Assembly: GCA_965287045.1 (NCBI GenBank)
Contig: OZ336872.1
Location: forward strand, 109,306,001 to 109,370,000
Direction: 5' to 3'
From: Carcharhinus amblyrhynchos
Lineage: Eukaryota
Length of the DNA stretch: 64,000 nt
The position numbers were made by a program, and so were the translations under genes. The notes under the pieces were generated by a model. It searched no databases and was not told where the DNA came from. It worked only from the letters and a program-made list of their open reading frames with translations. Shown in pieces: positions 5,831-55,033 of the stretch. Each line of letters opens with the position of its first letter. Position 1 is the first letter of the stretch.

Positions 5831-6059
5831 AAAATACCTGTTGTATATTTTAGCACCCAGTGGAGTACACTTCTCTTAAAATACAGATTTATTTTCTTTA
5901 AATCTGCTGCTGGAAGTCAGGGTCTGGCCTTTTAGTGTTTTCATCTCAAGTTCTGGTCAGGTCAGTTTTTATCTTCCACTTTGAACCTGATCAGAAAGTT
6001 GAAATTTCTGCATTCCCACATAAACTCTAAGGTTGCAGTACATCAACTTCCTATATATG

Positions 6060-6638
6060 AGTCTTGTTGAAATTGTACAAGACATTGGTAACGACATACT
6101 TAGAATACCGTGTGCAATTCTGGTCACCCGATTATAGAAAGGATATTATTAAACTAGAAAGAGTGCAGAAGAGATCTGTTAGGATGCCACCAGGACTTGA
6201 TGGATTGAGTTATAAAGAGAGGCTGAATAGACTGGGACTTTTTCTTTGGAGCGTAGAAGGCTGAGGGATGACCTTATAGAGGTCTATAAAATAACGAAGG
6301 GCATAGAGAAGGAGATAGTCAATATCTTTTCCCAGCAGAGTCTAAAACTAGAGGGCACAGGATTAAATGAGAGGGAGAGATACAATAGTGTCCAGAGGGG
6401 CAATTTTTTCACTCAGAGGGTGGTGAGTGTCTGGAACAAGCTGTCAGAGGTAGTAGTAGAGATGGATACAATTTTATCTTTTTAAAAGCATTTAGGCAGT
6501 TACATGGGTACGATGGGTATAGAGGGATATGGGCCAAATGCGGGCAATTGGGATTAGCTTAGGGGTTTAAAAGAAGGGTGGCATGGACAAGTTGGAAAAG
6601 GGCCTGTTTCCATGCTGTAAACCTCTATGACTCTATGA
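6060..6638 (+). mobile_element. CR1 LINE 3' fragment
   Basis: LKLYKTLVTTYLEYRVQFWSP..FFTQRVVSVWNKL; ctctatgactctatga tail. Confidence 0.9.
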
Positions 6639-7244
6639 GCTGGTAAAATAGGAAATAAAAATTCAAGGATTTAGGAGGGATGGGAAATTTAAAGACGTCA
6701 CATCAATAACTGTTGGGAAAAAGAGGTATGTGGTCTGTACTGGGATCTAAGGCAGCTTCCCATCTTACTTATAATGACATAAATCAGTCCTGTTGTTAAT
6801 CGCCCTTCCATGTGATGATGGTAACAGAACTAGATAATTTCAGAACAGCAGAATGTACTATCCCCTCTAGATTATTGAGAGTCGTCAGAAATCATCCTAA
6901 TCCCATCCTTGCCCATGTTAAACTAGCATTGAAATTAGAATCATGATGGTAAATACAACCAGGCCCAATCTGACGGAAACCTGAATAAAGTAGGCGGTGG
7001 GTTCCCTCCTCACAGAGACATTGGTGCGTGGAATTAAAATTTCTCAATTTTGAAGAAAGAACAATCAATATTGCCTACCACCCGATCACTGGGAATTCTC
7101 GGTCCACATGTTTAGCGCGGAAGAGATGAAAGAAAACAGACCCGAATCCCAGAGCTACTGTCTGTTAAAACCAATGTTTCCTGAACATTGTGCTGAATCT
7201 AAACGAGAGCCGCAGAACAAAACATAAAACTGGCATCGTGGAGC

Positions 7245-8440: not shown

Positions 8441-9190
8441 ACTCTGCTCCACCCCATCCAGCATTCTGTTCAGGCCTCCTTTGGAAAAACCTCAGGATAG
8501 CCTTCCTAGCAACCACTCTTGCCTGGACTTGGAGCAAGTGCTGGAGAGGCATTTAAATGATACCCCCCCCCCCAACCCCGCCCCCCCCCCCCCACCCACA
8601 CAGCCCCTCCCCCAGCATGCTTGGCTGGTACTGGGACAGATGAATTAGGGTCAGCCTCTCACAGTCGTGGTATGAAACTCGTAGTGCCTACAAATTGACA
8701 CAAAAATTCACCAATGCTACCAATAGGCTTCTCACCTCTTCTTGTGCATAATGACTTTGCCAAAAAAAAAATGAAAGTTCGATCCAAGGTTTCTGCTTAC
8801 CACACCTCCGCAGCATTCACTTCAACTTCTACTGCTTCTGTTCCTACCCCCTTATTGTCTCCGGACCCTGTTCAGGCTCCAAATTCTTGGTGCTTTATCC
8901 TGGCCTCCAATTGGCTTTCCTTAAATTCCTGGATGAGGGGCTGAATGGGCTGCTCCTGCTCTGATTTTCCTCTGTTTCTATGTAACAGGTTCTAAACGAT
9001 TGCGGACATAGGTAAAGCAAAAGATGAGGAAAGAACAAAACAAAAGGCCTTTTGTAGGGTGAGAGGCAGAAGAGATTAATTACCACAAGGGATTATGTTG
9101 CAATGGTGCAATACAGGATGTTAATAGAAAAAATAGAGAAACAAAAGATGGGCCTGGTGAAAATTCAAATGTAATAGAAGCCAATTAATT

Positions 9191-10548
9191 ATTTTTATTC
9201 ATTCATGAGACATGGGCGTCACTGGCTGTCCAGCATTTATTACCCATTCCTAATTGCCCAAAGATAGTTGAGAGTTAATTACATTGCTGTGGCTCTGGAG
9301 TCTCATTTAGGCCAGACCAGGTAAGGATGGCAGATTTCCTTCCTTAAAAGATCGTAGTGAACCAGATGGATTTTTCTAATATTAAGAACATAAGAACATA
9401 AGAAATAGGAGCAGGAGTAGGCCATCTAGCCCTTCGAGCCTGCCCCGCCATTCAATAAGATCATGGCTGATCTGTCGTGGCTCAGTTCCACTTTCCCGCC
9501 CTCTCCCCATAACCCTTAATCCCTTCTCTTATCAAAAACCCATCAACCCGCTTCTTAAAAATATTTAGCGAGGCAGCCTCCACCACTTCAACGGGCAGAG
9601 AATTCCAGAGATTCACCACCCTTTGAGTGAAGAAGTTCCTCCTCAACTCCGTTCTAAACCGCCTCCCCTTTATCTTGAGGCTGTGCCCCCTAGTCCTACT
9701 GTCTTTTTTGAGCGGGAAGAGTCTCTCTACCTCTATCCTATCCATCCCATTCATCATCTTATACGTCTCAATGAGATCTCCCCTCATTCTTCTAAACTCT
9801 AACGAGTACAAGCCTAGTTTATTCAGCCTCTCCTCATAGCTCAATCCCCTCAACTCCGGTATCAGCCTAGTAAACCTCCTCTGCACTCCCTCCAGGGCCA
9901 AAATATCCTTGCGCAGGTGCGGCGCCCAAAACTGCACACAGTACTCCAGCTGCGGCCTCACCAATGCCCTATACAGCTGCAGCAAGACCTCCCTACTTTT
10001 ATATTCAATCCCCCTCGCTATGAAGTCCAGCATCCCATTCGCCTTCCTGACCACCTGCTGCACCTGCAAGGTGGGTTTTTGCGATTCATGCACAAGGACC
10101 CCGAGGTCCCTCTGCACCGTCGCCTGCTGCAGTTTTTCGCCACGTAAGTAATAGTCCTTCCTACCATTCTTCCTACCAAAGTGGACCACCTCACACTTGC
10201 CAACATTAAATTCCATTTGCCATTTCCTGGCCCATTCGCCCAGCCTATCTAGATCCTTCTGCAGACTCTCCACACCCTCCGCACAATTTGCCGTTCCCCC
10301 AATCTTGGTGTCATCAGCAAATTTCGACACCCTGCACTCGGTTCCCTCCTCCAGATCATCTATATAAATGGTAAATATTGACAATGGTTTCGTGATGATC
10401 AGTAGATTTTTAATTCCTGATATTTTTTATTGAATTGAATTCAAATGCCACCACTTGCCATGGCAGGATTTGAATCCAGGTCCCCAGAACATTAGCTGAG
10501 TTTCTGGATTAACAGTCTAGCAATAATATCACTAGCCATCACCTCCCC
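9191..10548 (-). mobile_element. DeuSINE (SacSINE1-like) interrupted by a CR1
   Basis: Minus strand reads ccatctggttcactacgatcttttaaggaaggaaatctgccatccttacctggtctggcct..gactccagagccacagcaatgt (Deu-domain-like); ttaatt at both flanks. Confidence 0.7.
9384..10373 (-). mobile_element. 5'-truncated young CR1 LINE with uninterrupted RT C-terminal ORF
   Basis: 300-aa ORF 9482-10384 (FTIYIDDL, KFADDTK, LEYCVQFWAP); aatatt at 9378-9383 and 10374-10379 as probable TSD. Confidence 0.92.
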
Positions 10549-10631
10549 TTAATTGCATGTGAATAAAAACACTGGAGACGTACATTATCTGAATAAAGTT
10601 AATCTGGCCTGTGGGAAGAACACTGAAATTA

Positions 10632-10660
10632 TGATGTTTGCTTCCCTCTAGTGGCTCAAA
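10632..10660 (-). promoter_or_regulatory. Candidate CTCF site (duplicate copy)
   Basis: Minus strand GAGCCACTAGAGGGAAGCA resembles the CTCF core; 29 bp identical to 50377-50405. Confidence 0.45.
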
Positions 10661-12364
10661 GAATCGAATTGTTTCACTGTGATATTTGGAACTGTCTTTC
10701 AGCAAGAAGTTTTTTTAAAAGTTAGCGATACTCAGTGAGGTCAGCCAAGTGATATTTGAGGGCTTAAGCGGCACTCAGTGTTTTCAATATTTTATCAAGG
10801 AATATTTTAGTGAGATATTAAATATGATGCTTTTTATGACCACGGTAGCCCTATAATTTCTTCCATCGAAATACACATCTAGAAAATAAATACATTAAAA
10901 ATAGTGGAACTCCTTCTGTAATACTAGAATGGCTCAAGGCAACTCACTACCACCTTAAGGGCAAAGAGGGACAGACAACAAATGCTGGCTTTGCCAGCGA
11001 TGCCCACGTCCCATGAATGAAAATAAATTATAAAGCATTCAATTTGTTCTGTCTTCCACGTTCCGCTTCAGCATCCAATGTGGCCATTTTTGTTTTAGAA
11101 ACACTTTTCTATTCCCCTAATTTGTTGTTGAATAAGGAATCAATCCGGTCGCTTCTGAATAATTCACGTCAGTATTTACTGCCAGTGTGGAATACTATTG
11201 CTACAATAATCCAATCGTCAGGCACCACTACTTCTCAATTATCTGTGTAAATTTTCCAATCTCTCAATATACAAAGCTCTTTGCAATCCCAGACAGGAAG
11301 GCTATGAGTAGTTAAAAAATACTCCTGGCTTGACTCACAATCGGAAGATTTCATGTGCTCTCTATTTGTAGCAAAGCAATTATCATTGTAGTCTATACAG
11401 ACTCCAATTGCTACAAAAGGTATTTTGCTGAAATTTGCTGCATTTGGATTCACTTGGTACAATGATTTACTTCCTTACGAAACAACTTAACTGATGATGC
11501 TTTGGGGACCATCATTGTTTGAAAACGCTCAGCACCATCCTTAAACACCTAATTTAGACTTGCTATCGAATTGCTCCAGAAAATACTTCCAGCACATTAT
11601 GGCATCAGTCACCTAGAGAGACAAAGCACGACTTCTTAAAAAGGAGGATGAGAGGCCTTTACATGGAAACAAAACTTGCAACAAGCGCCAAGAAATGTCC
11701 GTGCACTAACAAGTGTCTCCATCACATTCAGTAGTGTTTCACTTCAAAATGCAAGTAATCTTTTCAAAACCTTATTTGATACTGAAAGCATGCAAATGTG
11801 ACATGTTTAGGACAATTTGGTAATTGCTGTAGCTTTACATTATAAAAACCATTGTGAAGATTGTGGTTTTTACCTTTTGCAGGTTCCTTTCATCTGGAAA
11901 ATAAATCTAGAAAAATCTACTGAAATTCCTTCACTAATTAAAGCAATTGTATCCTTGAACACAATTTAAGGCACATGCTCCTTTATAACAAACAATATTA
12001 AGCTAATTTGTCCTATAATCCCTAGTCATATCGCTCTCACTTCATGAAGATTCCAATCACATTATCTATTTGAGTTTCTTTTAGTATTACCTTATTTCAA
12101 GACAATTACCTACAGTTCCTTAATAATTGAAATTTCATGTTTATATTTTGACAAAGCGCAGAAGGAATATTTCAGCAACCTCAATCTTCAACTTTGAGTA
12201 TTGATACAAAAGAAGGTATTTTAAAATATTTCCTTGCCAAAGGAATTATATTTATTTGTTCGTGGGATGTGAGACCAGAATTTTGTTGTCCATCCTAATT
12301 GTCCTTTGAGAATGCAGTGGTGAGCCACCTTCTTGATATAGTCTATCTAATATAGGTACAGTGC

Positions 12365-13507
12365 TTATAGGATATATTTACCATAGGAGGAATGCAACAT
12401 GGGGAGGTAGTAAATTAGATTAGTCGCTGACTCAATGGAAGAAGCCAGAGAGTGGTAGTGGAGAATTGCTTCTCTGAGTGGAGGCCTGTGACGAGTGGTG
12501 TGCCACTGGGATCGGTATTGGGGCCATTGCTGTTTGTCATCTATATCAATGATCTGGATGATAATGTGGTAAATTGGATCAGCAAATTTCCTGATGGTAC
12601 AAAGATTGGAGGTGTAGCGGACAGTGAGGAAGGTTTTCAAAGCTTGCAGAGGGATTTGGACTAACTAGAAAAATGGGCTGAAAAATGGCAAATGGAATTT
12701 AACGCAGACAAGTGTGAGGTATTGTACTCTGGACAGACGAACCAAAGTAGAAATTACAGGGTAAATGGTAGGACTCTGAAGAGTGCAGTTGAACAGAGGG
12801 ATCTGAGAATACAGGTACAGAATTCCCTAAAAGTGACGTCACAGGTGGATAGGGCTGTAAATAGTGCTTTCGGTACATTGGCCTTTATAAATCGGAGCAT
12901 TGAGTATAGAAGTTGGAGTGTTATGGTGAGGTTGTATAAGGCATTGGTGAGGCCAAATTTAGAGTATTGTGTACAGTTTTGGTCACCTACTTACAGGAAG
13001 GATGTAAATAAGGTTGAAAGAATGCAGAGAAGGTTCACAAGGATGTTGCTGGGACTTGAGAAGCTGAGTTACAGACAGAGATTGAATAGTTCGGACTTTA
13101 TTCCCTGGAGCGTGGAAGAATGAGGGGAGATTTGATAGAGGTGTATAAGATTTTGATGGGTAAAGATAGAGTGAATGCAAACAGGCTTTTTCCACTGAGG
13201 CTAGGGGAGAAAAAAATCAGAGGGCATGGGTTAAGGGTGAAAGGAGAAAAGTTTAAATGGAATATTAGGGAGGGGCTTCTTCACACAGAGAGCGGGGGGA
13301 ATGTGGAATGAGCTGCTGGATAAAGTGGTAAATGCGGGGTCACTTTTAACATTTAAGAAAAACTTGGGTTCATGGATGAGAGGGGTGTGGAGGGATATGG
13401 TCCCAGCGCAGGTCAGTGGGACTAGGCAAAAAATGGTTCAGCAAGAACCAAGACAAGAAGGGCCAAAAGACCTGTTTCTGAGCTGTAATTTTCTATGGTT
13501 CTATGAC
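12365..13507 (+). mobile_element. CR1 LINE RT fragment
   Basis: VTSGVPLGSVLGPLLFVIYINDLD, LEYCVQFWSP; ttctatggttctatga tail. Confidence 0.9.
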
Positions 13508-14989
13508 AGTATGGCTTGCATTATATCATGCCACTGGATGGCCAAAGAGTTCTAGAGGTAATGGAATATTTTTTGAAGTGTTATCAATGTGGTCATTAAG
13601 GAAGTACAAGGATTATGCATAGTGTGCTGATATTTATCCCTCAATCAACATAACAGAACACAGGTTATCTGGACAATACAACATTGCTTTCTGTGTGAGT
13701 TTGATAAGTTTCTTACGATGACTACACTTCAAAATGTACTTCATCCAATGGTCATGAAAAGCACTATATACATGCAAGCCTTTCATTTCTCTTTACACAG
13801 AGTACAGGACAGCTGCATCTTCCACTTCCCTGTACATTCCCTGGTGGTGTTACTGGATGTTATTCTGAAGTGGCATAAAGTACCTCTAGAAATCCAGCAC
13901 AGAGCTATCTAAAGGTTGTATCAGTAAAAGTTACCACTGTACCTGCAACTTGTGTCAGCAGCCCTTTAATCTGAACTGGTTCAGAGCCCATTTGGAGCTC
14001 ACCTCAATCTTTGGTGAGCAACGCATGAATTCACAGATTGTTGGTGGTGGTAGAGGCAAACTCGCTGGGGTCTTTTAAAAGACTTCTGGATGAGTATATG
14101 GGATCTAATGGGATTGGGAGTTACAGATAGTTCTATGGCTTGGTGGGTATAGATGTGATCGGCGTAACTTGTGGGTCGAAGGGCCTGTTTGTGCCGTAGT
14201 GTTCTATGTTCTAAACTTCAAAACAATGTTTTTGGAAGTTGCTTTAGCTGCTTTGACTGCATGACATCAGGCTAACATCAAAGCAAGCTGTTTCAGCACA
14301 TGTAGACACCACATATACCCACACTTCTGTCCTCACACCACGCAAGTCATATAGGAAACAACAGGCGATGCGATCCATATCCAGCAAGTGGTGCAATCCT
14401 TCTGCGGTGCTGCTATATAAATTAATTTCTTGCTCATTGCCTGAAATGTCTTAGGTTTACAAACGAGCTTTTGTTTTTCATTGGAAAAAATGTAATCGTG
14501 TTTGAGTTACACTAAATGATTACCCAGCCATAAAGTTATTCGCCTATGCAAACTCATTCTTAAATGCAATTTACATCCAATGTTATTTCTTCAGTTTCAT
14601 GCTGCCCAACTTTGCTTTGAAAAATAATTTTCAATATAAATAAGAAGAGAGAATGCTGGAAAGACTCAGCAGAGAGAGAAACAGAGTTAATTTTTCAAAT
14701 TCATCAATTCTTTTACAGAACTGAAGAAAGGAGAAATGTGTTGGATTTTATACTGTATGAGATAAGTTGGAGCAAAGTAGAAGTTAGAGATAAATATCAC
14801 TCATGGTAAGTGGTTGTGATGGGAAGAATCACTTCATAGTTGTCTGTAAATTCAAGCTCTACCTCAGAGCAGTTGGCCTGCTTAACCAACAAAGTGTTGC
14901 AGTTGTTTCTGTTTATAACACAATCAATATCTCAGGCTTTACTGGCAAATCTCTTAACAAGTTACTTGCCACACTCTGATGAGTTGCAC

Positions 14990-15606
14990 ATTAAGTGGGA
15001 GCTCGGTGGGAATCGGGTACCTGGGCTGGAGGGTATTGCACGCAGCACTCCCATTCACCAAAGGTTGCACCCATTCATGGACTCTCAAGAAACCTGCCCT
15101 TTTTCTGTGGTTTGGTGGAGTCCGTGGACCATGTTAATATAGGATGTTTTAGACTGCACTTTTTAGTTTCTTAAAAAACCTTTGTTCAGTTTTGTTTGCA
15201 CTTCAGCCCCATGCCCCTGATCTAAGGGCACCCAGTGCAGAGAGGGGCGGGGAAGGAGGAACACATCCTCATGAACCCACTCCAGGGCCAGACCAAACTT
15301 ATCGTCAACAGGTCCAGGTAACGGGTGATCAAGGGGGTTGCCTGATCTGAATGTCTTTCCCCCTTTCACGGCTATATTTGTGGCTGGGTGACTCTGGGCA
15401 GAGAGCATGCAATGTCCATGGGTACCATCAAGGTCTTCTGTGCCCGTTAGGTGCCGCAGGGAATGAGGTGCATTATCAACCCTCTTAAGCATCTTTAGGT
15501 TTAATGTTTTAAGTTTGATTTGTGATTTGTTTTTGTTTCGGGCCCTTTGCCTTTGAGGGGCAGTTCTTTTTATTTTGTCCCTCAAGTTATTTAATTTAAT
15601 TTAATT
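14990..15606 (+). mobile_element. L1/Tx1-like 3' fragment
   Basis: gagagcatgcaatgtccatgggtaccatcaaggtcttctgtgcccgttaggtgccgcaggga resembles the Tx1 ORF2 C-terminus; T-rich 3'UTR and (ttaat)n end. Confidence 0.5.
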
Positions 15607-15880
15607 GTGTTGCACACAGGAGTGGAAACTAGGAGAGATTTGACAAAGATGTTTAGGGCACAAGATAAAAGGCGTATTAATGGGAATGTTCTCACACTTC
15701 TGAGACTAAGTGTGTGGCAGGTGATGGTGCCTTTTCCGCTGGCTAAAATGGTGGGATCCTGTATCAGATTCTACACTTGACACCTCATTAATTATAAGAA
15801 CAGCTGAATTTCTCATTGCATCACCTGACAGGCTCACAGCTGATTTGTCTGTCCTCTGTCAACTGTCAGATTTAAAGGTC

Positions 15881-16091
15881 ATGATGTGGGTATGCCGGCG
15901 TTGGACTGGCGTAAACACAGTAAAAAGTCTGACAACACCAGGTTTTAGTCCAACCTATTTGTTTGATAATATACTCGCAAGCTTTCGGGTTAGCCCCTTC
16001 GTCAGGTGACGAAGGGGCTAACCCGAAAGCTTGCGAGTATATTATCAAATAAATAGGTTGGACTAAAACCTGGTGTTGTCAGACTTTTTAC
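15881..16091 (-). mobile_element. Short Penelope-derived fold-back insertion (85-bp inverted arms)
   Basis: Arms 15920-16004 / 16007-16091 with one mismatch and a 2-nt loop; 13-bp TSD agatttaaaggtc (15868-15880, 16092-16104). Confidence 0.88.
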
Positions 16092-16904
16092 AGATTTAAA
16101 GGTCCCAGCACCATATTTAAACATCTGTCCATCATCACTCTCTCAAAAGATCTTCACCAGACTGTGCAGGATGTCAGCAACCCACAAGAAGAAGATGAGC
16201 AGCCTCAAGAAGTCTGTTCCCCGAATCAACCACTCTCCACCTGAACCCATCACCTGCATGGCACCCATGCCCACTTGGCCCTTTACCCATTGCATGTCGT
16301 GTCTTCATGAATCACTTTCCAGTAATTGATGTAGAATCTACTTGACCTCGCTGTTTGTAAAATTTTCAAGCAGACTTCATGAGGTCCAACTTTTCTTCCC
16401 TTGGTTTTTTTCTCTGCCTTCCTTTGTTTGTCTTTTTCATCCACCTCCTTACACTTCTGTCTACCATCATGAGCCATCGTCCTTTCCCCCCTCCCTTCCC
16501 CATCCCCTTGCACAGCCCTCCTTCCACATTGTCCCCTGATCTTCATCAGGAACAGCCAGCATTATGGCAGCCTGGCTTTGTTGCACTCATCTCAAAACCT
16601 CCTGTAAACTAAGGATTGCCTTATGCTTGAACGCTCTAGCAATCAGATTTTAGACTGATGTAGTTTCACGTTGGTGTGCTAGGAGTTTGAAAGACCTGAT
16701 GGGTCACTGGCGCGCAGTTGTTTTAATGAGCATTAAAGAGATGCAAACAAATACAAATGGCATTCACACAACAAACTAGCAGGAAGACCGACCCACTGTT
16801 AACCAGCATTTGAGAGAATTGCACAGTCATTTTATGCTGGCAGGTTTCTGACTTATTGGCTCCTGCTAGTTTCTCTGCTCCATCTGCCACCGAACCTGCT
16901 GGGG

Positions 16905-17712
16905 CGGGATGGAAGATGAGTTGCTGTCCCTCCAGTATGTATTGGCCTTCACTGGAACATTGCAGTGAGCCAAGGGCAGACATGTGGGTGTGAGAACGAA
17001 GTAGTGACTTAAAATGAGAGGTGACAGGAAGTTTGGGGCCATGTTTGCGGACTGAGTGAAGGTGCTCCACAAAGCGGTCATCTAGTCTGCATTTAGTTTT
17101 CCCATTGTAGAAGAGATTACATTGGGAGCAGTGAATACAGTAGACCAAATTGAAGGAGGTATATGTGAAATAATGTTTCGCCTGAAAGGAGTGTTTGGGA
17201 CTTTATACAGCGAGGAAGGATGAGGTGAGGTGCACCTTCTGCGATTGCAAGGGAAGGTGGCATGAGAAAGAGATAAGAAGTTGATGGTGATTAAGGAGTA
17301 GATTGGGACGTCACAGAAGAAATGGTCCCCATGGAATGCTGACAGGGAGCGTGAGGGAACAAAGTGTTTAGTGGTGGCATCATGCTGGAGTTGGCGGAAA
17401 TTGTGGAGGATGATTCTCTGACTGCAGAAACTGGTGGGTGAAAGGCGAGAACAAAAGGGATCCTATCATGGTTCTGGGAGGGAAGGGAAGGGATGAGGGC
17501 TGAGATACAGGAGATAGACTGGGTACAGCTGAGTGGCCTGTCAACCAGAGTGGGAAGGATCCCTTGATTCAGGAAAAAAGAAGACATGTCAGAAGTGCTG
17601 TGGAAGTTAGCATCACTGGAGCAGAGGTGGAGAAACTGGGAGAATGGAATGGAATCCTTACAGTAAGGGGTGGTCTGAGGGATTATAGTCAAGATAGCTG
17701 TGGGAGTCAGTT
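16905..17712 (-). mobile_element. Penelope-like element RT C-terminus and GIY-YIG remnant (pLTR piece at ~14645-14800)
   Basis: MVYCIHCSQCNLFYNGKTKCRLDDRFVEHLHSV and CKDSIPFSQFLHLCSSD. Confidence 0.8.
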
Positions 17713-18301
17713 TCTTTTACTTTGAAAATAAAGTTTGGCTTTTTAGCTCTAATGCTAAAAAAAAAATTAATTGCATCTGTTTTCATCTCATTACAATGTG
17801 TTGTTGAGCAACCGCATTTCATGCTGTTGATTCTTTTTAAGCGCCTCAATTTGAGATTATTGAGCACAAGATTTATGATGCAAAGTATTTGGATGAGATA
17901 AATGTCTCAATAAAACACCGGTCATTAATTTTTTCATTTAAATTTCTTTGGAATAAATTAACTCTTGCAGATTACTTTTAAAGTAACTTAATTGCAGAAT
18001 AGCGTTCATGGGACAATGTGTTGCTACTTACAAATAGTCATTATAGAAAATAATGAACAAATGTGGATAAATAAATATATTTATCAGTCAGTTTGTAACT
18101 TGTTGATTCGAAAGGACAATTCAGAAGCCATTCACTCTTCTGTTATAAACCTGTGTATTACAAAAATAAATTCAAATGCAATGGAGAAGCTATTTAAATA
18201 TTTTTCGATGTGGGAGAACCATTGCACAGTTTATTATATTTTCATTTCTTCTCAGTTTCAGTTTCCCTATAAGCATTGGAATAATCCTTCCCCATTCAAT
18301 T

Positions 18302-18447
18302 CAAATAATGGCTGGATGATAAACTTTGAGATTTAGAATGTTTCTTTGTGGATGGGCATTGTTCAACAAGCGGTGGTGGGTCATGATCCACGGTCTACTG
18401 ATCAGAATCTTGCGATGGAAGGTAAACGTCGTCTTTATGTTTGCCAC
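18302..18447 (-). pseudogene. COPS7B: Decayed copy of the COPS7B terminal coding exon
   Basis: Aligns to 53997-54155 (VANIK..QDSDQ*TVDHDPPPLVEQCPSTKKHSKSQSLSSSH); acceptor AG changed to AC, internal deletion/frameshift, in-frame TAG. Confidence 0.88.
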
Positions 18448-18800
18448 GTTAAAATTAAAAAGCAGCCACCCAAATTCATGGTCCAGAATTCTCCCATGCC
18501 GCTTGCCACTGGAATTTTAGTGGGCAGATTGTGGGCAATGTGAAATGCCATTGACTGTCAGGGTGGAATTTCTGGCTTTTAGACTAGTGTGCTGTAGAAT
18601 TCTACCCATGCTATTCCTTTTAGCAGAACATTGAACTATGATGAAGCAAAAAGAGGCAAAATTGACCTGATTGTCATGCATCTCAATGTCATCACGCTTT
18701 CGGGCAATATTTTGGTCGGTGGGTTGGATGCGTGCCCGCTGACAATTAAGAAGCTAATTTAAATGACTTACACACCAGCTGATCTGGATTTTACCATTTT

Positions 18801-19122
18801 TAGAATCCATAGAGTCCTGCAGTGCAGATTGAGGCCATTTGGCCTATCCAGTCTGCACTGACCACAACCCCACCCAGACCCTAACCACGTAACCCCACAT
18901 ATTTACTCTTCTACTCCCCTGATGCTAAGGGCAATTTAGCATAGCCAATCCATCTAACCTGTACATCTTTGGAGTGCGGGAGGAAACCCAAGCACCAAGA
19001 GGAAACCCACACAGACACAGGGAGGACATGCAAACTCCAGATAGACAGTGACCTGAGGCCAGAATTGAACCCAGATCCCTGGTGTTCTGAGGCAGCAATG
19101 CTAACCACTGTGCCACAGTGCC
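18801..19122 (-). mobile_element. HE1-like SINE
   Basis: Full-length match to 407-735. Confidence 0.8.
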
Positions 19123-19399
19123 ATCACCAGTTGATGTATGGGCATTATGGGCAGGCAGCCAATCCGTTTTTATCAGTTTGTCATCCTAGGGTGGGATAAA
19201 AAGAGCATGAACAAAGACAGGCTGAGATTGTGGGAGCTCTTGACACTCTTAGACTATAGTTTTATGAACATATTACCTGCTTTCTTTTGAGGTTTGTGCA
19301 TCTTGTTTGGAGTTTTCAGGACATTCAGTCTTGTAACACCTCTCTGACATTTCCAACCCTTTGGCACCCTCAGTGCACAGGTAAATCCCATTTACATCT

Positions 19400-21200
19400 C
19401 TGCAGACGTGAACTGTGTATTCAGCAGGGAGCATCTTCTCTGAGGAGGAAGACAGGAGCCAAAGAGAGAGGAGACTAGGTGGTCACAGGCATCACCTCAG
19501 AGACCAGGTGCAGGCACAGGGTGTTTGCAGGTAGCAGTGATGGCAAGGAAGATGGCCCCTCAGAAAATGGAACTGGCCAGCTGTCAGGGTGTCCAGGCAG
19601 TGATCCAACTCTCTCGACATGACAGTGTCACAGGAGGCTCCAACATTCAAGGGAAGCCAGGTGATTGGGCTGGAGGTAGCCTCCAACTGTGTGGGTGGAT
19701 ACTCAATAACTGTGGCTCTGAAGGTCACGGTATCGTTTAACTGTTAACTGGAATTTTCTACAGGTCATGTTTGTGGAGCTGTACATAAATATGTTAAACT
19801 GGTGAACAGGCATGTGAGCCCATCTAGGCATCAGAGTATGGTGACTAGGGGATTTTCACAGTAACTTCATTGCAGTGTTAATGTAAGGCTACTTGTGACA
19901 CTAATAATGACCTAAATTTATTCATCCATTTCATAAGAACATAAGAAATAGGAGCAGGAGTAGGCCATCTAGCCCTTCGAGCCTGCCCCGCCACTCAATA
20001 AGATCATGGCTGATCTGTTGTGGCTCAGTTCCACATTCCCGCCCTTTCCCCATAACCCTTAATCCCCTCACTTATCAAAAACCCATCAACCCGCTTCTTA
20101 AAAATATTTAGCGAGGCAGCCTTCACCACTTCAACGGGCAGAGAATTCCAGAGATTCACCACCCTTTGAGTGAAGAAGTTCCTCCTCAACTCCGTTCTAA
20201 ACCACCCCCCCTTTATCTTGAGGCTGTGCCCCCTAGTCCTACTGTCCTTTCTGAGTGGGAAATTTCATAGCGAGGGGGATTGAATATAAAAGTAGGGAGG
20301 CCTTGCTGCGGCTGTATAGGGCATTGGTGAGGCCGCAGCTGGAGTACTGTGTGCAGTTTTGGTCGCCGTACTTACACAAGGATATTTTGGCCTTGGAGGG
20401 AGTGCAGAGGAGGTTTACTAGGCTGATACCGGAGTTGAGGGGGTTGAGCTATGAGGAGAGGCTGAATAAACTAGGCTTGTCAGAACAGAACAAGCCAGTA
20501 GGGCTGAGTTGTCCAGAGGCGTTGTGGCTCACAGGATTCCCCTACATCCAGGGTGCTATTGATTGCATCCCTGTGGTCATCAAGACGCCAGTCGACCAGC
20601 CGGGCATCATTGTTAATAGGAAAGCGTATCACTCCGTGGACATTCAAATCATGTGCAAACACAGAACCCAGATTCTACAGGTTTGTGCGAGACACCCTCG
20701 CAGCTCTCACGATCCTACATACTGAGACACTCACGTGTAAGGTTGTTCATGGCTCCAACTCACCTCAATGAATAGTTGCTGGGTCACAAAGGATATTCCT
20801 TGAAAAGGTGGCTGATGAAGCCACTCAGGCACCTAAGGGCAGAGGACAGATACAATCACTGTCATGTCTCCACAAGGGAGGTGGTTGAAAGGACAATAGG
20901 TCTGCTAAAATACGACTGCTCCAGGGGTGCCCTGCAGTATTCGCCACAGCGAGTTTGCTTACCGTGGTTGTCTGCTATGTTCTACAATATCTTGTTCTCT
21001 CCAGAGAGGAACTGCTGGACCAAGTGGACACTAAGGCAGGTACACTCACCTCAGAGAGGAATCCAAAGAAGACTCAGATGCAAAGCCCATACAGACACGT
21101 GGCAAAAATGAGCAGCTAGAAATGAGGAACCTTCAGGGAGGCACAGACACCAGGGAGTCCTTGATTCAGGGTTCCTTCATCTGGACTGCCAAGGCTTGCC
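19400..21200 (+). mobile_element. PIF/Harbinger transposase remnant
   Basis: GFPYIQGAIDC, NRKAYHSVDIQ, HPRSSHD, LGHKGYSLKRWLMKP, STREVVERTIGLLK: HARBI1-like DDE motifs, frameshifted. Confidence 0.85.
19932..20480. mobile_element. Young CR1 insertion with 5' inversion
   Basis: 3' tail segment on minus (19932-20261) joined to an upstream RT segment on plus (20264-20480); both near-identical to 32050-33150. Confidence 0.85.
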
Positions 21201-22189
21201 TTCCATCTCAGTCCAAGGGCACTATGAGAAAACACTGCCTCAGTAATAAAGTTTGCTGCCCCAATCTTTTTTTAATCAGGATTGATGGTGCCAAAACCCC
21301 TCAAATATTCAGGACACTGAGGGATTGTGAGCAAAGTAGTCATTTATCTTTTGATATTTAAGGGAAACAAAAGAAAGTATACAATCTTAACTGATAAATA
21401 CATGTGTGATATTGATAAAAAAGCAGAAGCCACTTGTGCAAACCCTTTGCTGTGCTACTTTGCCATAAGCTTATGTTTGCGGGTGCTACATCTTGATGCT
21501 GCCCTCTTTCCCCACTTTGCTGACAGAGGTTTTAGAGGCAGGCTGCTGATTGTGGTGTCTAGTTGGCCCTGATGACCTCTATTTGGCCATTGGGGTCTGA
21601 GCAGCTTCTGCCTGAGAGGGTGCACACAGTAGCATGGCTGGGCATCTCTCAATGAGCACGGACTCTGAAGATGGCAGGATGATTGAAAGAGAGGTGGAGG
21701 AGTTGCTCTCTTTGTCCAGGGTGCCATGAGAGGAGTCAACAAAGATGATAGTTGTCTGCCAATGTGAAGTATGTTTGTACCTTGCTGTTCACCACTGATG
21801 GATGTGCACCTATCTGAGGGACTGGGTACCACATCCATCTACCACACTGGCAGTGACCTCCTCAGGTCATAGCCTCGGCTCACAGGTCTAATTGTATCCA
21901 ACAAAGATCTGAAATATTTATCATCTTTTACGAGTGACTGGTGCAAAATAGGACTTGGGGAAAACTTGCATGTGATCTATTTTTCTAATATAGCTCCTTC
22001 ATTGTAATAATATCTTCATCATATTGATTAAACTCTGTGAGCTTAATGTAGGATTCTGTCGAACAACAGTATAGTGAGGGTGTGCAGGTCTGAGTGCAAC
22101 CCCTGTCATGTTCAAGTCCCTGCTATCTTTCCCCTCTGTTGAGTTCCCCTCATTGTCGAATTGTCATCAGCCACCATCAGTGATTGAAC

Positions 22190-24100: not shown

Positions 24101-26442
24101 TCTCGCTTCATTAGACCAGCAAGGAAACATTTTTCCCTTCAAAAGAAAACACCCAGAAGCTTTACTCACCCGCCTTCCTTTACCAATACTCAAATAATTC
24201 TCTGAACAACCTTGAACCATATTTTCCTTTATTACTGATTCTAAAGGAGCATGTATCATCTGGAATAGTTACAGTTTTAATAGACATTTATTTTTCAGGT
24301 GCTCCTTTCCTGTTACTACAACCGGTTTCCTATTTAGTTTCTAACAATCTGCCTGAATAGGTCCTATTTTGTTACAATGGAAACACTCATGCCTCTGAAT
24401 GTTAGTTCCACCTTCCGTACCTTCCCTTCTGAGCTGAGGTGAAATTTCCTGATCATTCCCAACTGTTTTTTCTCTTCCCTAACTGTTTATTTCCTTTCTC
24501 CATCCCACCTTCTATCTTTCTCAGTTTTGAAAGGATGCTGGAAAAAAGACTTGGGTTCTTTAGATCCGTTCAGGATCATCTAGTTCTGTTGCCTGTCTGA
24601 CAGTTTTAACTTTGTGTTCCTCTTCACGAATTCTAATAACGAAAGGAAGTGAAACTTCAAATTCTTCATAAAGAATCACCTCTCTAAGGGCTTTGTATGT
24701 TCCTGCTACGACTGATGCCCATATTCAATGGTCAAAATGACTTTGCTTTACTCTCAGTGATTCGATATAGGTTTGACCAGGCTGTTTTCTTGAAATTTTG
24801 AAAGTTGCCATAGTCCCACCATAACTGCTCTTCCCACGTGCTTTCAGAAATCTACAGCTGGAGCATAGTGTCTGGCCTTATGATTACTTTTTCTAAAACT
24901 CTGGTTAGGTTAGCTTTTGCCTTTCAGTTGGAACCTAGACCAGGAAACTGAAATTCTCCATTCTCTGTGGGTTACTGCACATTCAATTGGGACTACGATG
25001 TTGTGGCCATTACGGAGACATGATTAGAACAGGGACGGGAACGGTTGTTGGCAGTTCTGGGATATAGATGTTTCATCTGGGATATAGATGCCCTGCGGCC
25101 TATGATGTCCTGGGCAAGTGTCCCCTGAAGGACTGGGACCACAAGGCCTCCAACCGGCTTTCCAGCGTCACAGATGTATGAACCGCTCTGTTCATCCCAC
25201 TGCCCTTGAGACGCATCAGGGTACAAAAAGGGAGTCAGAAGCCTTAGTCTCCCTAGCGCAAGGCCCAGCGTGGTCTGCAACCCCTCCTCCTCCCTTGGAG
25301 TGGCAGTGGGCCCATTGGTCGCTCCATGGGACACATTCTGCAGCCCCTCAGCCTTGCCCTGCTGTGAGTGGATCACAATCTCAAGAGCTGCAGCCGTACC
25401 CCGCTGTGTCTTGGCACCGTCCCAGTGGGTCCCCTGAAACCTCTCGAGGCCCTCAGCCATGGCCCTCAGAATCCCAATAAGGCTGTCAAGCGGATAGTGG
25501 GAGACAGCCATCATGGACTTGGGGGAGTGGGAGACACTCCTGAGGCAATGTGTGGGAATGCAATGGGAGGGTGGGAAGGTGGAGGGAGGGTGGTGGAGTG
25601 GGGGGAAGGTGGAGGGAGTGTGGCTCACTGTGCAATCAGGGAAGGGGGTGTGATGATCACTCTGCAATCAGGGAGAGGGGGCCACAAGAGGGAGGGTTTG
25701 TGAGGAGGCACGCTGGGGGTGGGGGTCCATGAAAGAAGGTCGAGAATGTGGGGGAAGAGTCCCAATGTCCATGGCGGGGAGGGGGGTGAGGGAGACTGTG
25801 TCTGCAGGTGTGGTGGTGGGGTGGGAGGGCGCTGCTGTTTTGCTGCTTGCACATGCACAAGTGGAGCCTCTGACCTGAGCTGCCGGCTCTCAGGCCATTT
25901 AAGCCCTACCCCTTCTCCCTACAAGCCAGAAACTGTAGGAAAGATCTTTTTCTTGCTCCAGGAGCATAAGATCACAGATTTGGACTCGCCAAAGAAATCA
26001 AAGTCTTGATAAGACAGTTCAGCTGCAGCTCCTGTTTTCACCCTCATTCTGGATTTTCCTCATGAGATTGCCCAAGATGTATCCCAGCCTTGGGAATAGC
26101 TGGAAAATTTGCATTCTGAGTTACACCTGGACACAATCTACATGCTACAGTTCAGAAATGTAACTATTTCAAAATAGTCGGAACCTGTCTCAATGTGAAT
26201 AAAACCTTTAAGTTTCCACATTGTAATCACAGTTTTAAATAATTTGAATCTGGGCAAATCCTGGATTTCTTTCCCCTGAATTGGGTATGTGGCTGGAGCT
26301 GCTGTTTCCATGTAGCAGACATCAAGAGTGAATTTCCGAAGGGATACAATCAGCGACAACAGGAGAAAGTTCCTCATGCTTGAGTTAAATTACCAGCAAA
26401 ATGAATCAAGCAAATTTGTGCAATTTTGCAGCGAATATTCAC

Positions 26443-29171
26443 TGTCGCTAGGTGTCGTAGATCAAACAGCCCAGACTGCTCGCTGATCCTTTTCATTCCA
26501 GTTTATGTCCGAAACGGCCACTGCCCGTCCTTTTTTGTTTTTCTTCTTCTTGCTAATTCGTTTCTTTTACTTCTCGCCGTCCGGGGGTTCCTAAAACTAG
26601 TCTTTGGGATTTAAAGCTGCGGGTGCATCTATTTCAGTTGAGGAAAGGTTCTGAGAAAATTCCTCTCCTAATAAATCTGCAGTATCCTGGGTGAAATGGA
26701 GTTAGACACTCAGACACATCAGAATATAAGGGAAGTAGCTCCGTGTTATTGTTCATCATTAGAAACCTGATCAACGCTTTTCCAGAAATGTACTTCATAG
26801 AATCATCGTGTAAAAGAGGCCCTTCGGCCCATTGAGTCTCGACTGACACATGAAACTCCGGAGGTCCCATCTTATCCCATTTACCTGCACCTGGCCCATT
26901 ATGAACGTTATGGCATGTCAAGTGCTCATCCAGAAACTTTTAAGGATGTGAGGCAACTTGTCTCTACCACCCTCCCAGGCTGCACATTCCAGACCATCAC
27001 CATCCTCTGGGTAAAAATGTTTTCCTCACATTCCCCCTAAACCTCTTGACCCTCACCCCTTGAGTCTATGTCCCCTCGTGACTGACCCTTCAACTAAAAG
27101 GAATAGCTGCTCTTTATCCATGCCCCTCCTAATCTCATACACCTCAATCAGGTCACCCCTCAGACATCTCTGTTCCAACGAAAACAACCCAAACCAATCA
27201 ACATTCTCTTCATAACTTAAATGTTCCATCCCAGGCAGCACCCTAGTGCAGTTTCTCTGCATCCCCTCCAGTGCAATCAAATCCTTCCTATAATGTGGTA
27301 ACCAGAACTGCACGCTATACTCTAATTGTGGCCTCAAAGATCTGTGCAACTCCAAAATGACTTTGCTGCTTTTGTAATCTATGCCTCAACTGACAAAGGG
27401 AAGTGTTCTATCAGCTTTTTTCACCATCCTACTAACCTTCCTCCTTCAAAGATCTGTGGATAAATACACCAAGGTCCCTTTGTTCCTCAGAATTCTCTAG
27501 TGTCATGCCATGCATTCAATACTTGCTTGTCAAATTACTCCTTCCAAAGAGTACCTCACAATTTTCAGGGTCAAATTCAACATACTATTTATCTGTCCAC
27601 ATGGGAGGGTATCCATCATATCCGTCTATATTTTCTTATAGGCTAAGCCACTCAGCCTCACTGTTAACCAGTCTGCCAATCCTCATGTCATCTGAATCCT
27701 ACCCCCCTCCCCCCAAACATGGTGATTTAAAGTTTATTTATTAGTGTCACAAGTCAGCCTACAATAACACTGCAACAAAATTCTGTTAAAATTCCCTAGT
27801 CGCCACACTCCGGTACCTGTTCGGGTACACTGATGGAGAATTTAACATAACAAATGCACTTGGCCAGCACTTCTTTTGGACTGTGGGAGGAAACTGGAGC
27901 ACCAGGAGAAAACCCACACAGACATGGGGAGAATGTGCACACCCCACACAGACAGACAGACAGAAGTCAGGAATCAAACCTGGCTCCCTGGTGCTGTGAG
28001 GAAGCAGTATGGCCAGGGATACAATTCATCCTTCCCCATATCAATTTGCTCAAGAGCCTTGCAATCTCTTTCCTTGAATTCCATACCTTCATCTTCATTC
28101 TCTTGGATGAAGAGGCCATGAAATATTTACCCAACACTTCACCAATGTCCTCTGACTGCACCCACAGATTGCCCCCCTTAGATCCTAATTGCTCTACTCT
28201 TTCCCCTGATTTTCCTCTTCCCATTGATATACTTTTGGAATATCTTGGGATTTTCCCCTACGTTTACCAGCCATAGCTTTTTCATATCCTCGCTTTTCTT
28301 TGCTAATTGTCTCTTTGCTGGCTACTATATCACAATCCATATGTCAATCATTGCCCTTAACTCATCAATTTTACCTGTAATACTCCTAGTGTTAAAGTAG
28401 AGGCTAGCCACCTTACCTCATATCCTTGAAACTTATACAGCTATACTCTTTCTATGATGCTCTGCCCTTATTCTGCTAATAGTCACCCTACCCCAGCTCA
28501 ATCAGGTTAAACTCCTCCCAACAGCACGAGCAAAATGTCCCGAAAGGATGTTTCAATCTGATATTTTTCAGGCCGCCTTATTTCTACCTGAGTTTGTCAT
28601 CAAATATTAAGAATGAAACGTGAGATTGTAGAGCATCAATTAAACTGAATGCACTTCATTAATCAATACACATTTCAATGTAAAGAAATCCAATTGCAGT
28701 TATAAACAGCACCTGTTTTATATGAATTCTAGCTGGATAGCTTTTTTTGGTGAATGTAACCTTTACAGTTGCATTAGCACAATGCATGCAAAGTATTAGT
28801 TTCACACATCTTTGGACACTAAGGGACAATTTAGCATGGCTAATTCACCTAACCTGCAGATCTTTATACATAGGGACGAAACTGGAGTACCTGGAGGAAA
28901 CTCCACACAGACATGGCGAGAACGTGCAAACTCCACACCATCACCCAAGGCTGAAACCGAACACAGCATGCCGGCACAGTGTGACAGCAATGCTAACCAT
29001 TGTGCCATCATACTGCCTGACAACGCTCCTCATTGCAGATTGCCCATGTCTACTGATCCCCAACAATTCACATCAACTTACTCGCTGTGAGCGAAGCAGG
29101 GGGGTTGCATCCACTCTTGTAGTCAAGAGAGCTAGGAATAGTCCAAAAAGCAAAATCCAAATAATGCTCAT
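26443..29171 (-). pseudogene. Natriuretic peptide (NPPC/CNP-like) pseudogene, copy A; exon 1 CDS 29082-29171, exon 2 26443-26686
   Basis: Exon 1 MSIIWILLFGLFLALLTTRVDATPLLRSQR|gtaagt; exon 2 cag|DTADLLGEEFSQNLSSTEIDAPAALNPKD* with stops at 26597, 26591, 26567, a frameshift, then KRTGSGRFGHKLE*KGSASSLGCLIYDT*. Confidence 0.88.
26794..28550 (-). mobile_element. Degenerate CR1 in intron 1 of NP copy A (with SINE 27727-28010)
   Basis: LRPQLEYSVQFWLPHYRKD; same position as 37473-39750, so inserted before the duplication. Confidence 0.8.
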
Positions 29172-31485: not shown

Positions 31486-32049
31486 TCTGTGTTTGGCCTC
31501 ATGATTTTTTTAAAAACTCTGGTTAGGTCATCCTTTGCCTTCCAGTTGGAACCTAGACCCGGAAACTGAAATTTCCCATTCCCTGTGGACTATTGTACAT
31601 TCAACCTCCAAATAAGAACATAAGAAAGAAAATAAGAAAATAAATGAACTCATAGCACAGAAATTAAAAAAAATCATTAAATGTTTGGAAGAGTTGGGAT
31701 ATGTAAAAAAACTTCATGTAGCTAATTGTTGGGGAAAGGGTCCAAGTCACCTTACGGGGAACAAGTTTTACTCGATAACCTCCCAATTTTTATTTAAAGC
31801 AGGTTTTACAAGTCCGGCAAGAATCAAAAATTCAACTGGTAAATTTGAAAGATTTATTAACCATTAAAAGGTAGATGGGCAACAAGTTAGAAAAATGAAA
31901 GAACAATGATTCACTTGGCAATAAACAGCAGAAATTAACAGTAATCAACAGTATTAACAAAAAGAGAGGATTAACTTTAACAACTCAAAGCTTTCCTCAA
32001 TGTAGTTTTTAAAAGATATTCCATAGCAGTTCAAAACAGCTTCTGACCA

Positions 32050-33150: not shown

Positions 33151-33179
33151 TGTAATAAATAAGAAGACCTTTCAGACTT

Positions 33180-37160: not shown

Positions 37161-37358
37161 TCAAACAGAGCCCAGATTGCTCATTGCTCCTATTTTGTCC
37201 AATTTATTTTTGAAACAGCCACTGCTCGACCTGTTCTTGTCTTTTCGGTTTTTCTTCTTCTCATGGTGGTGGTCCTTGGGATTTAAAGCTGCGGGAGCAT
37301 CTATTTCGGTTGAGGAAAGGTTCTCAGAAAACTCCTCATCTAATAAATCTGCAGTATC
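37161..37358 (-). CDS. Natriuretic-peptide-like precursor copy B, coding exon 2 (pro-region and mature peptide)
   Basis: cag|DTADLLDEEFSENLSSTEIDAPAALNPKDHHHEKKKNRKDKNRSSSGCFKNKLDKIGAMSNLGSV*; resembles CNP-22 GCFGLKLDRIGSMSGLGC; exon continues to donor after 37142. Confidence 0.85.
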   Translation of the reverse strand, partial: DTADLLDEEFSENLSSTEIDAPAALNPKDHHHEKKKNRKDKNRSSSGCFKNKLDKIGAMSNLGSV

Positions 37359-40361: not shown

Positions 40362-40451
40362 TTGCTTTGAGCGAAGCAGGTAGTTTGCATCCGCCCTTGT
40401 GGTCAAGAGAGCTATGAATAGTCCAGAAAGCAAAATCCAGAAGACGCTCAT
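40362..40451 (-). CDS. Natriuretic-peptide-like precursor copy B, coding exon 1 (signal peptide)
   Basis: ggaATG..MSVFWILLSGLFIALLTTRADANYLLRSKQ|gtaaat; 90 nt, phase 0, hydrophobic core with A-D-A cleavage motif; joins exon 2 in frame to give 95 aa. Confidence 0.85.
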
Positions 40452-49900: not shown

Positions 49901-50135
49901 CTGGTAAGATCGCACTCCACCAGCTGCAACACCCGCCCCCCACCCCCCACCACCAAGTCTCTGAATACATTTAAGGAGGAAATGTATAAATTTTTGAATC
50001 ACTAAAAACATCAAAAGGTATGGGGAGCAAGCAGGAGTTTGGCATTAAGATTGAGGAGGATCAGCCATATTGTATTTAATGTCAAAGCAGGCTCACAGTG
50101 GCCAAATGGCTACTCCTGCTCTCATTTTCTCTCTA
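46960..50135 (+). mobile_element. Long, heavily decayed CR1 (endonuclease through RT and tail) with nested SINE (47060-47332) and MITE
   Basis: IIGDFNLHID (APE domain), IIIFQNS, NYTLVSLISIV, KFADNTKLGG, 3' tail ggctactcctgctc. Confidence 0.8.
49584..49917. mobile_element. Harbinger-type MITE
   Basis: Terminal inverted repeats gggcgcaatcttacca / tggtaagatcgcactc. Confidence 0.6.
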
Positions 50136-50376
50136 ATATGTTTGAAGTTATGGTAGACATCGGTAAAGCAGGAGGTGAGGACAGAATAAAACAGTGTTCT
50201 GTATTGGCAGAAGTGATAAATACTAATGGAACAAATAAAGAAATAAAATATAGGTCTAGAGGTTCAAATGGGAATAGAAACCAATTAATTCCATATAAAC
50301 AAACTTAAAAACACCAGAGTTATGTCTTGCATTAAATCAAATTTAATTTGGTCCACATGAAGAACACTGAAAAACC

Positions 50377-50405
50377 TGATGTTTGCTTCCCTCTAGTGGC
50401 TCAAA
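50377..50405 (-). promoter_or_regulatory. Candidate CTCF site between COPS7B and the NP genes
   Basis: GAGCCACTAGAGGGAAGCA on minus; 29 bp identical with 10632-10660. Confidence 0.5.
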
Positions 50406-53400: not shown

Positions 53401-53996
53401 GGCTTTGTAGCTCTAGTGCTAAAGAAACCATTAATTTCATTAAATAGTTCAGCTCTGTTTTCATCTCATTGTTGTTGAGCAACCACATTTCATGCTCAAT
53501 CTTTTTAAATGCCTCAATTTGAGATTATTCAACACAACATTTTTGATGCAAAGTATTTGAATTAATTAAATATCTCAATAAAATACTGGTCATTTGCTCT
53601 GGTTTAAGTATCCTTTGAATAAACTAACTGTAGAGATTATTTTTAAAGTAACTTCATTGCAGAGTAACTTGTGCTTCAATGTGTACACAGACTTAATCAG
53701 TCACTGTAGGGGACAGTGAACAAGTGTGAACATATGAATGCAAAAATCCTTTATGACTTCAGATGTCAGTTTGTAACTAGTACCTTTTAATAGGAAAGGA
53801 TGATTCAGTAGTCATTCAGTTTTCTATTATAAAACCTGTGTATTACAAAAACATTTTCAAATGCACAGGAAAGGCTATTTAAATTTTTTTCAATGCGTCA
53901 TTTGGGAGAACCACTGCACAGTCCATTATATTTTCATTTTTTCTTAATTTCAGTTTCCCAATATAAGCACTGGAATAATCATTCCCACACGTTCTT

Positions 53997-54155
53997 CTAA
54001 TGACGGCTCGATGATAAACTTTTAGATTTTGAAAGTTTCTTTGTAGATGGACGTTGTTCAACAAGCTGTGGAGTGTCACGGTCCATGGGATGCTGATCAG
54101 GGTCTTGTGTTGAGGTAGAAGCTGTTGCCTTCAATGTCTTCTTTATGTTCGCCAC
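53997..54155 (-). CDS. COPS7B: COP9 signalosome subunit 7b, terminal coding exon
   Basis: tttttaag|VANIKKTLKATASTSTQDPDQHPMDRDTPQLVEQRPSTKKLSKSKSLSSSRH*; SSRH C-terminus typical of COPS7B. Confidence 0.95.
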   Translation of the reverse strand: MANIKKTLKATASTSTQDPDQHPMDRDTPQLVEQRPSTKKLSKSKSLSSSRH

Positions 54156-55033
54156 CTTAAAAATAAAAGTCACAGCCATAAAAACTTATATCATTCTTTA
54201 CTGCAGAACATAGAACTACAAAGCATAGGAAAGCACTTGAGCTACTTTAGGCTTTTAAAAAAGCTAATCTGCCATCATACCACCATGAACCCAACATTAA
54301 TACTATTAAATCCAATGCGCTGCGCATTGTCAGATACACAACTTTATTTATACATGTTTATTTACTTAAACCCATCAGACCGCTATGTGCTTGCTCCATC
54401 TTTCAGCTAATGTCACGTTCAAGCCCCTGCTATCTTTCCCCTCTGTTGTTCTACAATATTCTAAGCTAAGTTTATAAAGTTTAACAGTAAAAAGACAATA
54501 AATGTTTAGGATCTTTGTTCTGCTTTTTCGTAGCTCTCATCCACAATTTTAGGGGTGGGTTTTGACTGGATAGCATCATTTTCATCCAAACTGAAGCTCA
54601 AAAGTCTGCATTTTAACCTAGCTCCAAAAGCACTTTTGGTTATTAAAAGGCAACTAAACCCTCTGGCAGCCAAGACAGCCCAACAATGCCAGGACAAGTG
54701 CAGTTGTCTATACTAGAGTACGGTTCAATTGTATATATTATCTTGGTTTAGAATACACAACCACTTTCTCTAAATAAGTCACTCAAAAAGTAGTCCTGCG
54801 AAGTTAGGAGGGATATTAAAAATGAATATTATCGGAGGTGAGCAAGCAATAGAAAACCAAATTAAATATGTAAAAAAGGAGTTTTACAGACAGCAGTTGC
54901 ACATTTGAAGATTGTCACAATTGTAACATGGCTTACAATTAAAAACAAATTCCTGTCAACAGATTAAACTACATACGTTCGATGGAAAATGCAGGATTAA
55001 TGGGTCAATAATTTTTTTAAAATCTTCACTCAC

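Follow-up and report, generated by a model that had tools for sequence, protein, structure and literature searches.

A degenerate duplicate of the COPS7B 3' end beside two altered CNP4-like genes in Carcharhinus amblyrhynchos, with contigs of a third gene copy

Introduction

Natriuretic peptides (NPs) are defined by a 17-residue ring (PMC9219612), and NPPA and NPPB arose from NPPC3 by tandem expansion (PMC4992253). The gene order around the C-type gene is Cops7b-Nppc-Dis3l2 in mouse (table in PMC3420870), a human deletion covers COPS7B, NPPC and DIS3L2 (PMC6836550), and NPPC is dosage-sensitive for human skeletal growth (PMC6836550, PMC2729669). We analysed a 64,000-nucleotide stretch of Carcharhinus amblyrhynchos (contig OZ336872.1 of assembly GCA_965287045.1, positions 109,306,001 to 109,370,000; hereafter the window, with positions counted from its first letter), which carries the 3' part of COPS7B, two NP-like genes, NP-A and NP-B, and a degenerate copy, or ghost, of the COPS7B 3' end. 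According to the original prediction, made from the letters alone, the ghost was left by an older duplication of a unit composed of an NP gene and the COPS7B tail, and a further NP paralog should lie at or beyond the left edge of the window.

Results

A dead duplicate of the COPS7B tail

The source gene, on the minus strand, is COPS7B, because its exon at 60160-59960 matches human CSN7b (E 3e-34) better than CSN7a (E 3e-25) and its last exon matches the CSN7b C-terminus (E 1e-10). Using self-BLAST and local alignments, we found that its tail recurs on the same strand in seven collinear blocks, the ghost spanning 13,211 bp against 4,355 bp for the source, with offsets decreasing from 41.2 to 32.3 kb. 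The pairs, ghost first, are 8936-9190 with 50097-50290, 10549-11872 with 50285-51714, 11887-12399 with 51945-52434, 13511-13999 with 52442-53009, 14241-14640 with 53007-53396, 17725-18479 with 53389-54189, and 21902-22146 with 54171-54451. This is the recurrence that had been claimed (a tail of 4.35 kb copied as a ghost of ~13 kb), and its placement "downstream" is correct in COPS7B's own minus-strand sense. Over the five main blocks the two copies are 81.2% identical (3,335 ungapped columns).

The exon within the ghost is dead, as had also been stated: it starts at 18447 with an AC acceptor where the source has AG, 13 nt are deleted from it, and the ancestral frame runs into a TAG. The ghost includes the end of the last intron, the corresponding block scoring 226 against a maximum of 202 in 200 shuffles, a narrow win, and the stretch beyond it gave no score above shuffles. 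Because intron sequence is included, the ghost results from a duplication at the DNA level and not from a retrocopy. Its inflation by transposable elements (TEs), the remaining part of the claim, stands for a fraction of the inserted DNA: 3,489 of the 9,230 inserted bases have another copy inside the window, and among ten open reading frames (ORFs) scanned, three that lie in the ghost span match TE domains, one RVT_1 (below its cut-off) and two DDE_Tnp_4 (one above the cut-off). The remaining inserts are presumably TEs as well.

Overall, there is practically no doubt that the COPS7B ghost is real and dead. With homology to its source, a retained intron and disabling lesions, it is an unprocessed (duplicated) pseudogene fragment of COPS7B, presumably with no function of its own. 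As dead DNA, it is useful as a breakpoint marker and as a gauge of relative age for the CNP4/NPPC expansion.

Contigs of a third CNP4 copy

Contigs from four public runs (X1, X5, X7 and X9), chosen among the 20 of 21 listed runs that cover 36,700-37,450 in part, were aligned to this NP-B interval at 80% likeness. Those of the B type differ from the window by 1-7 letters per piece and have no gap at the 66-nt deletion or the 2-nt insertion of NP-B described below in any of the four runs; these lesions are therefore not assembly errors. Contigs of the A type are recognisable, as 37 of 39 listed differences correspond to the window's NP-A letter (39 of 40 rows, one without X1 support being dropped, out of 104). 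Both types are present in all four runs.

A third type, found in at least two of the four runs (X1 and X5), replaces 68 letters of NP-B by 134. The spacing in canonical shark CNP4 is 134 in eight of 12 proteins and 137 in the other four, versus 97 in NP-A. The third-type contigs also read at 37,163 a letter absent from both A and B, which would put a stop directly after the last Cys. Spacing and stop position are compatible with a canonical CNP, whose frame and ring may be intact. A separate contig type of the 3' untranslated region (UTR) has gaps of its own. In X1, this copy, C, differs from NP-B at 55 of 458 aligned letters, and in the 3' UTR and intron it is ~88% alike.

We conclude with high confidence that a third CNP4 copy with the usual exon-2 spacing exists outside the window, and the further NP paralog that had been predicted is thus found. 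Because of the synteny Cops7b-Nppc-Dis3l2, C probably lies to the left of the window.

In other sharks, a profile search found no second CNP4-type paralog among the best 120 of 144 matches. One candidate (P0025) was rejected: its N-terminal part is identical to a S. torazame protein, and it is likely an older mis-model of the same gene.

Two altered copies of CNP4

In NP-B, both exons are open and the GT-AG splice sites are intact. Compared with canonical shark CNP4, its exon 2 has lost 22 codons (66 nt), and a 2-nt insertion has removed the second Cys, so that one Cys remains; the product does not have the 17-residue ring closed by two cysteines, nor does it end at the second of them. R-x-x-R or RSK motifs number zero in NP-B exon 2, versus three to four pattern matches in each of 12 shark proteins. 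NP-A has no open frame through the ring, owing to its TAG in exon 2. A search of the whole window for the canonical ring motif found none.

Upstream of NP-B, a TATA-like box near 40,580 is adjoined by a TGACGTCA motif, which we take to be like a cAMP response element (CRE). NP-A is without the 836 bp directly upstream of this box (40,590-41,427 versus 29,310), TGACGTCA motif included, and a few common letters flank the junction. Two upstream blocks are kept in both units, 41,427-41,966 with 29,312-29,843 (88%) and 44,293-44,512 with 30,655-30,888 (85%). Both show weak internal inverted symmetry and are possibly regulatory elements or old miniature inverted-repeat transposable elements.

NP-B exon 2 matches the Pfam ANP family at 32.1 bits (cut-off 27). 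A word-based protein search with it gave no match, and HMMER against 1.84 billion representatives gave a single one, a 116-aa white shark CNP; further protein searches found a matching entry in 12 shark species, one each. These 12 CNP4 entries are canonical, 115-117 aa long and ending in the ring Cys. A 19-row tree puts NP-B exon 2 together with shark CNP4 and tetrapod NPPC, among the carcharhiniform sequences and apart from the clade of 131-139 aa shark CNPs, its exact place being unsure because it forms a long branch. Given this grouping, the two exons and the adjacency to COPS7B, we identify NP-A and NP-B from their sequences as copies of shark CNP4/NPPC, neither of them canonical. In annotation, the two NP genes beside COPS7B in this assembly should not be mistaken for the canonical hormone gene.

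Two positions deserve mention. At 36,875, nearly all contig depth in the four runs disagrees with the window's letter, which is either a private variant or an assembly error; at 37,226, the X1 B contig differs, changing Ser to Gly at exon 2 codon 45.

Relative ages of the two duplications

The Kimura two-parameter distance (K2P) is 0.219 between ghost and source (confidence interval, CI, 0.197-0.243) and 0.169 between NP-A and NP-B (CI 0.150-0.187), the latter over a collinear, same-strand homology set pairing 25,615-30,888 with 36,335-44,512. For the ghost intron block, in which constraint is expected on neither copy, the distance is 0.32. Because single-block values overlap (0.12-0.23 for A/B, 0.19-0.29 for the ghost), the age order is likely and not certain; these distances suggest that the ghost is very probably older than the NP-A/NP-B duplication, in line with the original prediction.

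A shared element left of the ghost

Profiles built from the A/B pairs were run over the window. In 1-22,146, none of the profiles for NP exon 1, exon 2, the 3' UTR, the intron and two upstream blocks had a match, while that of a 330-bp element, E, hit 5,912-6,017 (E 8e-10). The 2.1 kb that separate this left copy of E from the ghost tail on its right contain no NP exon. In local alignments, the left copy scores 284 and 233, with shuffles reaching at most 150 and 118. Its second piece, 6,646-6,785, matches 31,661-31,800; as a 150-bp tile this match was top among 1,266 windows and was reached by none of 40 shuffles, and in one long local alignment the piece did not win (218 against a shuffle maximum of 249). 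The NP-A and NP-B units are alike in having E downstream of the gene, to its left, and the order and orientation with E left of the COPS7B tail are common to the ghost and right-hand copies. K2P between the left E and the two others is 0.34-0.46 (short alignments), versus 0.18 between those two, a divergence compatible with the age of the ghost, being near that of its intron block.

Each of the two NP units has a short interspersed element at its upstream end (SINE; 31,070-31,488 and 44,807-45,139). The first is cut off exactly where E begins, which likely marks the A/B tandem junction.

Other repeats and feature coordinates

Members of a young long interspersed element (LINE) family, presumably CR1-like, are 93-98% alike (3,313-3,682; 9,378-10,426; 19,932-20,480; 31,176-31,335; 32,047-33,165), and the copy at 9,485-10,426 has a 313-codon open frame with an RVT_1 match. 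DDE_Tnp_4 transposase fragments, which we take to be of Harbinger type, lie at 20,480-21,110 in the ghost intron and at 34,357-34,797 downstream of NP-B. In the NP-B 3' region, a short high-copy repeat (36,728-36,769) attracts many unrelated contigs in the four runs. An older retroelement family, nested and mutually inverted (75-83% identity), is found left of the ghost (1,146-2,911) and in a COPS7B intron (57,348-59,813). Rfam gave no matches in the window.

Table 1. Coordinates of the features at the COPS7B-NP locus
Feature	Position in window	Strand	Remarks
Element E, left copy	5870..6785	+	5,870-6,060 and 6,646-6,785, LINE fragment between
Ghost of COPS7B 3' end	8936..22146	-	seven collinear blocks (3,981 bases) plus 9,230 inserted bases
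Dead copy of COPS7B last coding exon	18300..18447	-	81.9% identity to source
Intron part of the ghost (end of last COPS7B intron)	21902..22146	-	homology ends near 22,146 (right breakpoint)
Element E downstream of NP-A	24824..24988	+	
NP-A exon 2, pseudogene	26460..26686	-	TAG at codon 30, ring motif broken
NP-A exon 1	29082..29171	-	open, 30 aa
Element E downstream of NP-B	31486..31800	+	left end abuts truncated SINE
NP-B exon 2	37161..37358	-	65 aa; open frame in window; contigs without gaps in all four runs
NP-B exon 1, coding part	40362..40451	-	30 aa, signal-peptide-like, GT donor
Source block: COPS7B 3' flank/UTR, last exon, intron end	50097..54451	-	self-BLAST and local alignments
COPS7B last coding exon	53997..54155	-	52 aa and stop; CSN7b 214-264, E 1e-10
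COPS7B penultimate exon	55034..55139	-	read from sequence alone; frame joins flanking exons
COPS7B internal exon	59958..60160	-	protein match to human CSN7b

Discussion

History of the locus

The histories that can be drawn depend on what the left copy of E represents. If E is a single-copy flank, then the older unit, running from E to the COPS7B tail, lies wholly in the window and has no NP gene, so that either the right-hand unit gained this gene or the left one lost it by deletion; if E is a dispersed repeat, the simple tandem model of the original prediction stands.

A local duplication at the DNA level copied the COPS7B tail, and the copy, without promoter and upstream exons, lost its acceptor, decayed and gathered insertions; a tandem duplication, very probably later, produced NP-A and NP-B. 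For the rest, we tentatively favour the addition. The older unit would have extended from the left E, near 5,870, into the COPS7B intron, near 22,146, and never contained an NP gene. The ancestor of NP-A and NP-B would have arisen as an extra copy of the native CNP4 that came to lie between E and the right-hand COPS7B tail, possibly as part of the same complex template-switching event. Mammalian NPPC and COPS7B presumably point toward each other, and NP-A and NP-B are on the strand of COPS7B, which tilts us toward an inverted second copy. C would then be the native NPPC, further left toward DIS3L2 and in either orientation. In this exact form, such a history is slightly more doubtful than probable on the alignments at hand.

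Several points weigh against it. The flanks of E are unrelated in every comparison, as is also expected of a dispersed repeat; the sequence left of the left E gave no score above shuffles against that left of the E downstream of NP-A, and the spacer 6,785-8,936 is without a detected homologue in the right-hand copy. Unlabelled dispersed repeats do occur in the window, one example being an unrecognised two-copy repeat at 24,110-24,225 that recurs on the opposite strand at 45,198-45,319. A single tandem event explains the ghost, C and the A/B ancestor in fewer steps, and the C-B divergence (55/458) fits the age of the ghost under either model. The C joint is absent among the matches listed for X7 and X9, which is no evidence of absence.

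The original model, a single tandem duplication of an NP gene together with the COPS7B tail, with C as the minus-strand sister of the ghost just left of the window and the left E as an unrelated repeat, is possible but rather unlikely. It needs the fewest events, it accounts for the existence of C and its similarity in age to the ghost, the unrelated flanks of E agree with it, and the left 9 kb are mostly insertions, so that NP upstream blocks may be pushed out of the window. It does not predict, however, that the left E is placed and oriented as the left end of a unit should be, nor that 1-8,936 contains no NP-B upstream block, when the nearest such block in the NP-B unit is 5.6 kb from the tail. 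The third NP gene that this model predicted is borne out as to its existence, and the model's mechanism is put in doubt by the lack of any NP block in 1-22,146 and by E at 2.1 kb from the ghost.

A longer array of units, each with E, an NP gene and the tail, is less likely still. Here a deletion would have removed the NP gene from the unit at 5,870-22,146, and C would be part of one more unit of equal orientation, farther to the left. This accounts for both the left E and the missing gene. Two adjacent tiles at 4,400-4,690 have their best match in the NP-B promoter (41,082-41,250, same strand), which would suit a deleted unit, but they are borderline, each being reached by one of 40 shuffles and the joined stretch by three of 40; no exon 1 lies beside them, and the model needs more events. 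With 24 tiles tried, neither this likeness nor that of tile 3,840-3,989 to the COPS7B flank is significant, and tile 3,980-4,129 (121 against a shuffle maximum of 120, opposite strand, AT-rich) was set aside.

Finally, that the copies reflect an assembly artefact or allelic haplotypes, or that C is an ancient paralog (CNP1-3) or sits on another chromosome, is very improbable: the C contigs do have lower depth in X1 (5-5.9 versus 9.3-13.4 for A and B, depth being no copy number) and C is unplaced, but copies that differ by 19% and carry separate insertions are not alleles, each of the four runs has contigs of both the A and the B type, with 37 of the 39 listed A-type differences matching the NP-A letter, and C is more like B in 3' UTR and intron than a member of the other shark CNP clade would be. 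The insertion of a second CNP4 copy, the single tandem duplication and the longer array all place C to the left of the window.

Could NP-B be functional?

The open frame of NP-B invites a speculation that we regard as improbable: NP-B could be an expressed, ring-less CNP4 derivative kept in a carcharhiniform group, acting as a secreted competitor for NPR-C that tunes the intact third copy and converging, from NPPC, on osteocrin, a peptide presumably devoid of a disulfide ring. The natriuretic-like peptide osteocrin can act by occupying NPR-C (PMC11291853, PMC9219612). By analogy, NP-B might act likewise, although it is not a member of the osteocrin/musclin group, coming from a recent NPPC duplication and having one motif with changes inside it and one Cys.

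Beyond the open frame, intact splice sites, the TATA box and the motif presumed to be CRE-like speak for a function, as do the 66-nt deletion and 2-nt insertion that are ungapped in all four runs. Over two stretches common to the three copies, B has 8-10 derived letters versus 25-27 in A (binomial p 0.002-0.017; 40 of 104 rows, assuming that all rows shared by A and C are among those listed), and this low count may reflect constraint on B or conversion with C. Against a function stand the altered core/ring motif and the lost processing sites, the 12 non-synonymous versus two synonymous nucleotide differences between exon 1 of A and B, and a B-type contig in X7 with another letter in the stop codon.

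Comparison with known systems

The ghost itself is nothing unusual: in its retained intron, strand and locus it resembles an unprocessed pseudogene fragment from segmental duplication as generally known, and splice-site loss, frameshift, stop and TE insertion are likewise typical of such fragments. The duplication mechanism is ordinary, and the interesting part is the open, ringless NP-B. The literature searched gave no description of several CNP4 copies at one locus in sharks, but most comparative natriuretic-peptide papers, being in subscription journals, fell outside that search, so that absence from print is not established. Because NPPC is dosage-sensitive in humans, a lineage that has three copies, with two disabled or altered, would be a natural test of how extra NPPC dose is removed or re-used.

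The two genes share with shark CNP4 (Mustelus asterias XP_078058278.1, Scyliorhinus canicula XP_038672508.1, Carcharodon carcharias XP_041037327.1) the same 30-aa first exon and a homologous exon 2, and they adjoin COPS7B like mouse Nppc (table in PMC3420870). In contrast to the 12 shark species with one canonical entry each, there are here two non-canonical copies and a third outside the window. A parallel is the NPPA/NPPB expansion as described in PMC4992253, in which a local CNP duplication also gave neighbouring paralogs; unlike that expansion, the present one concerns the CNP4 locus, appears lineage-restricted, carried along a fragment of the neighbouring gene and left at least one of its products a pseudogene.

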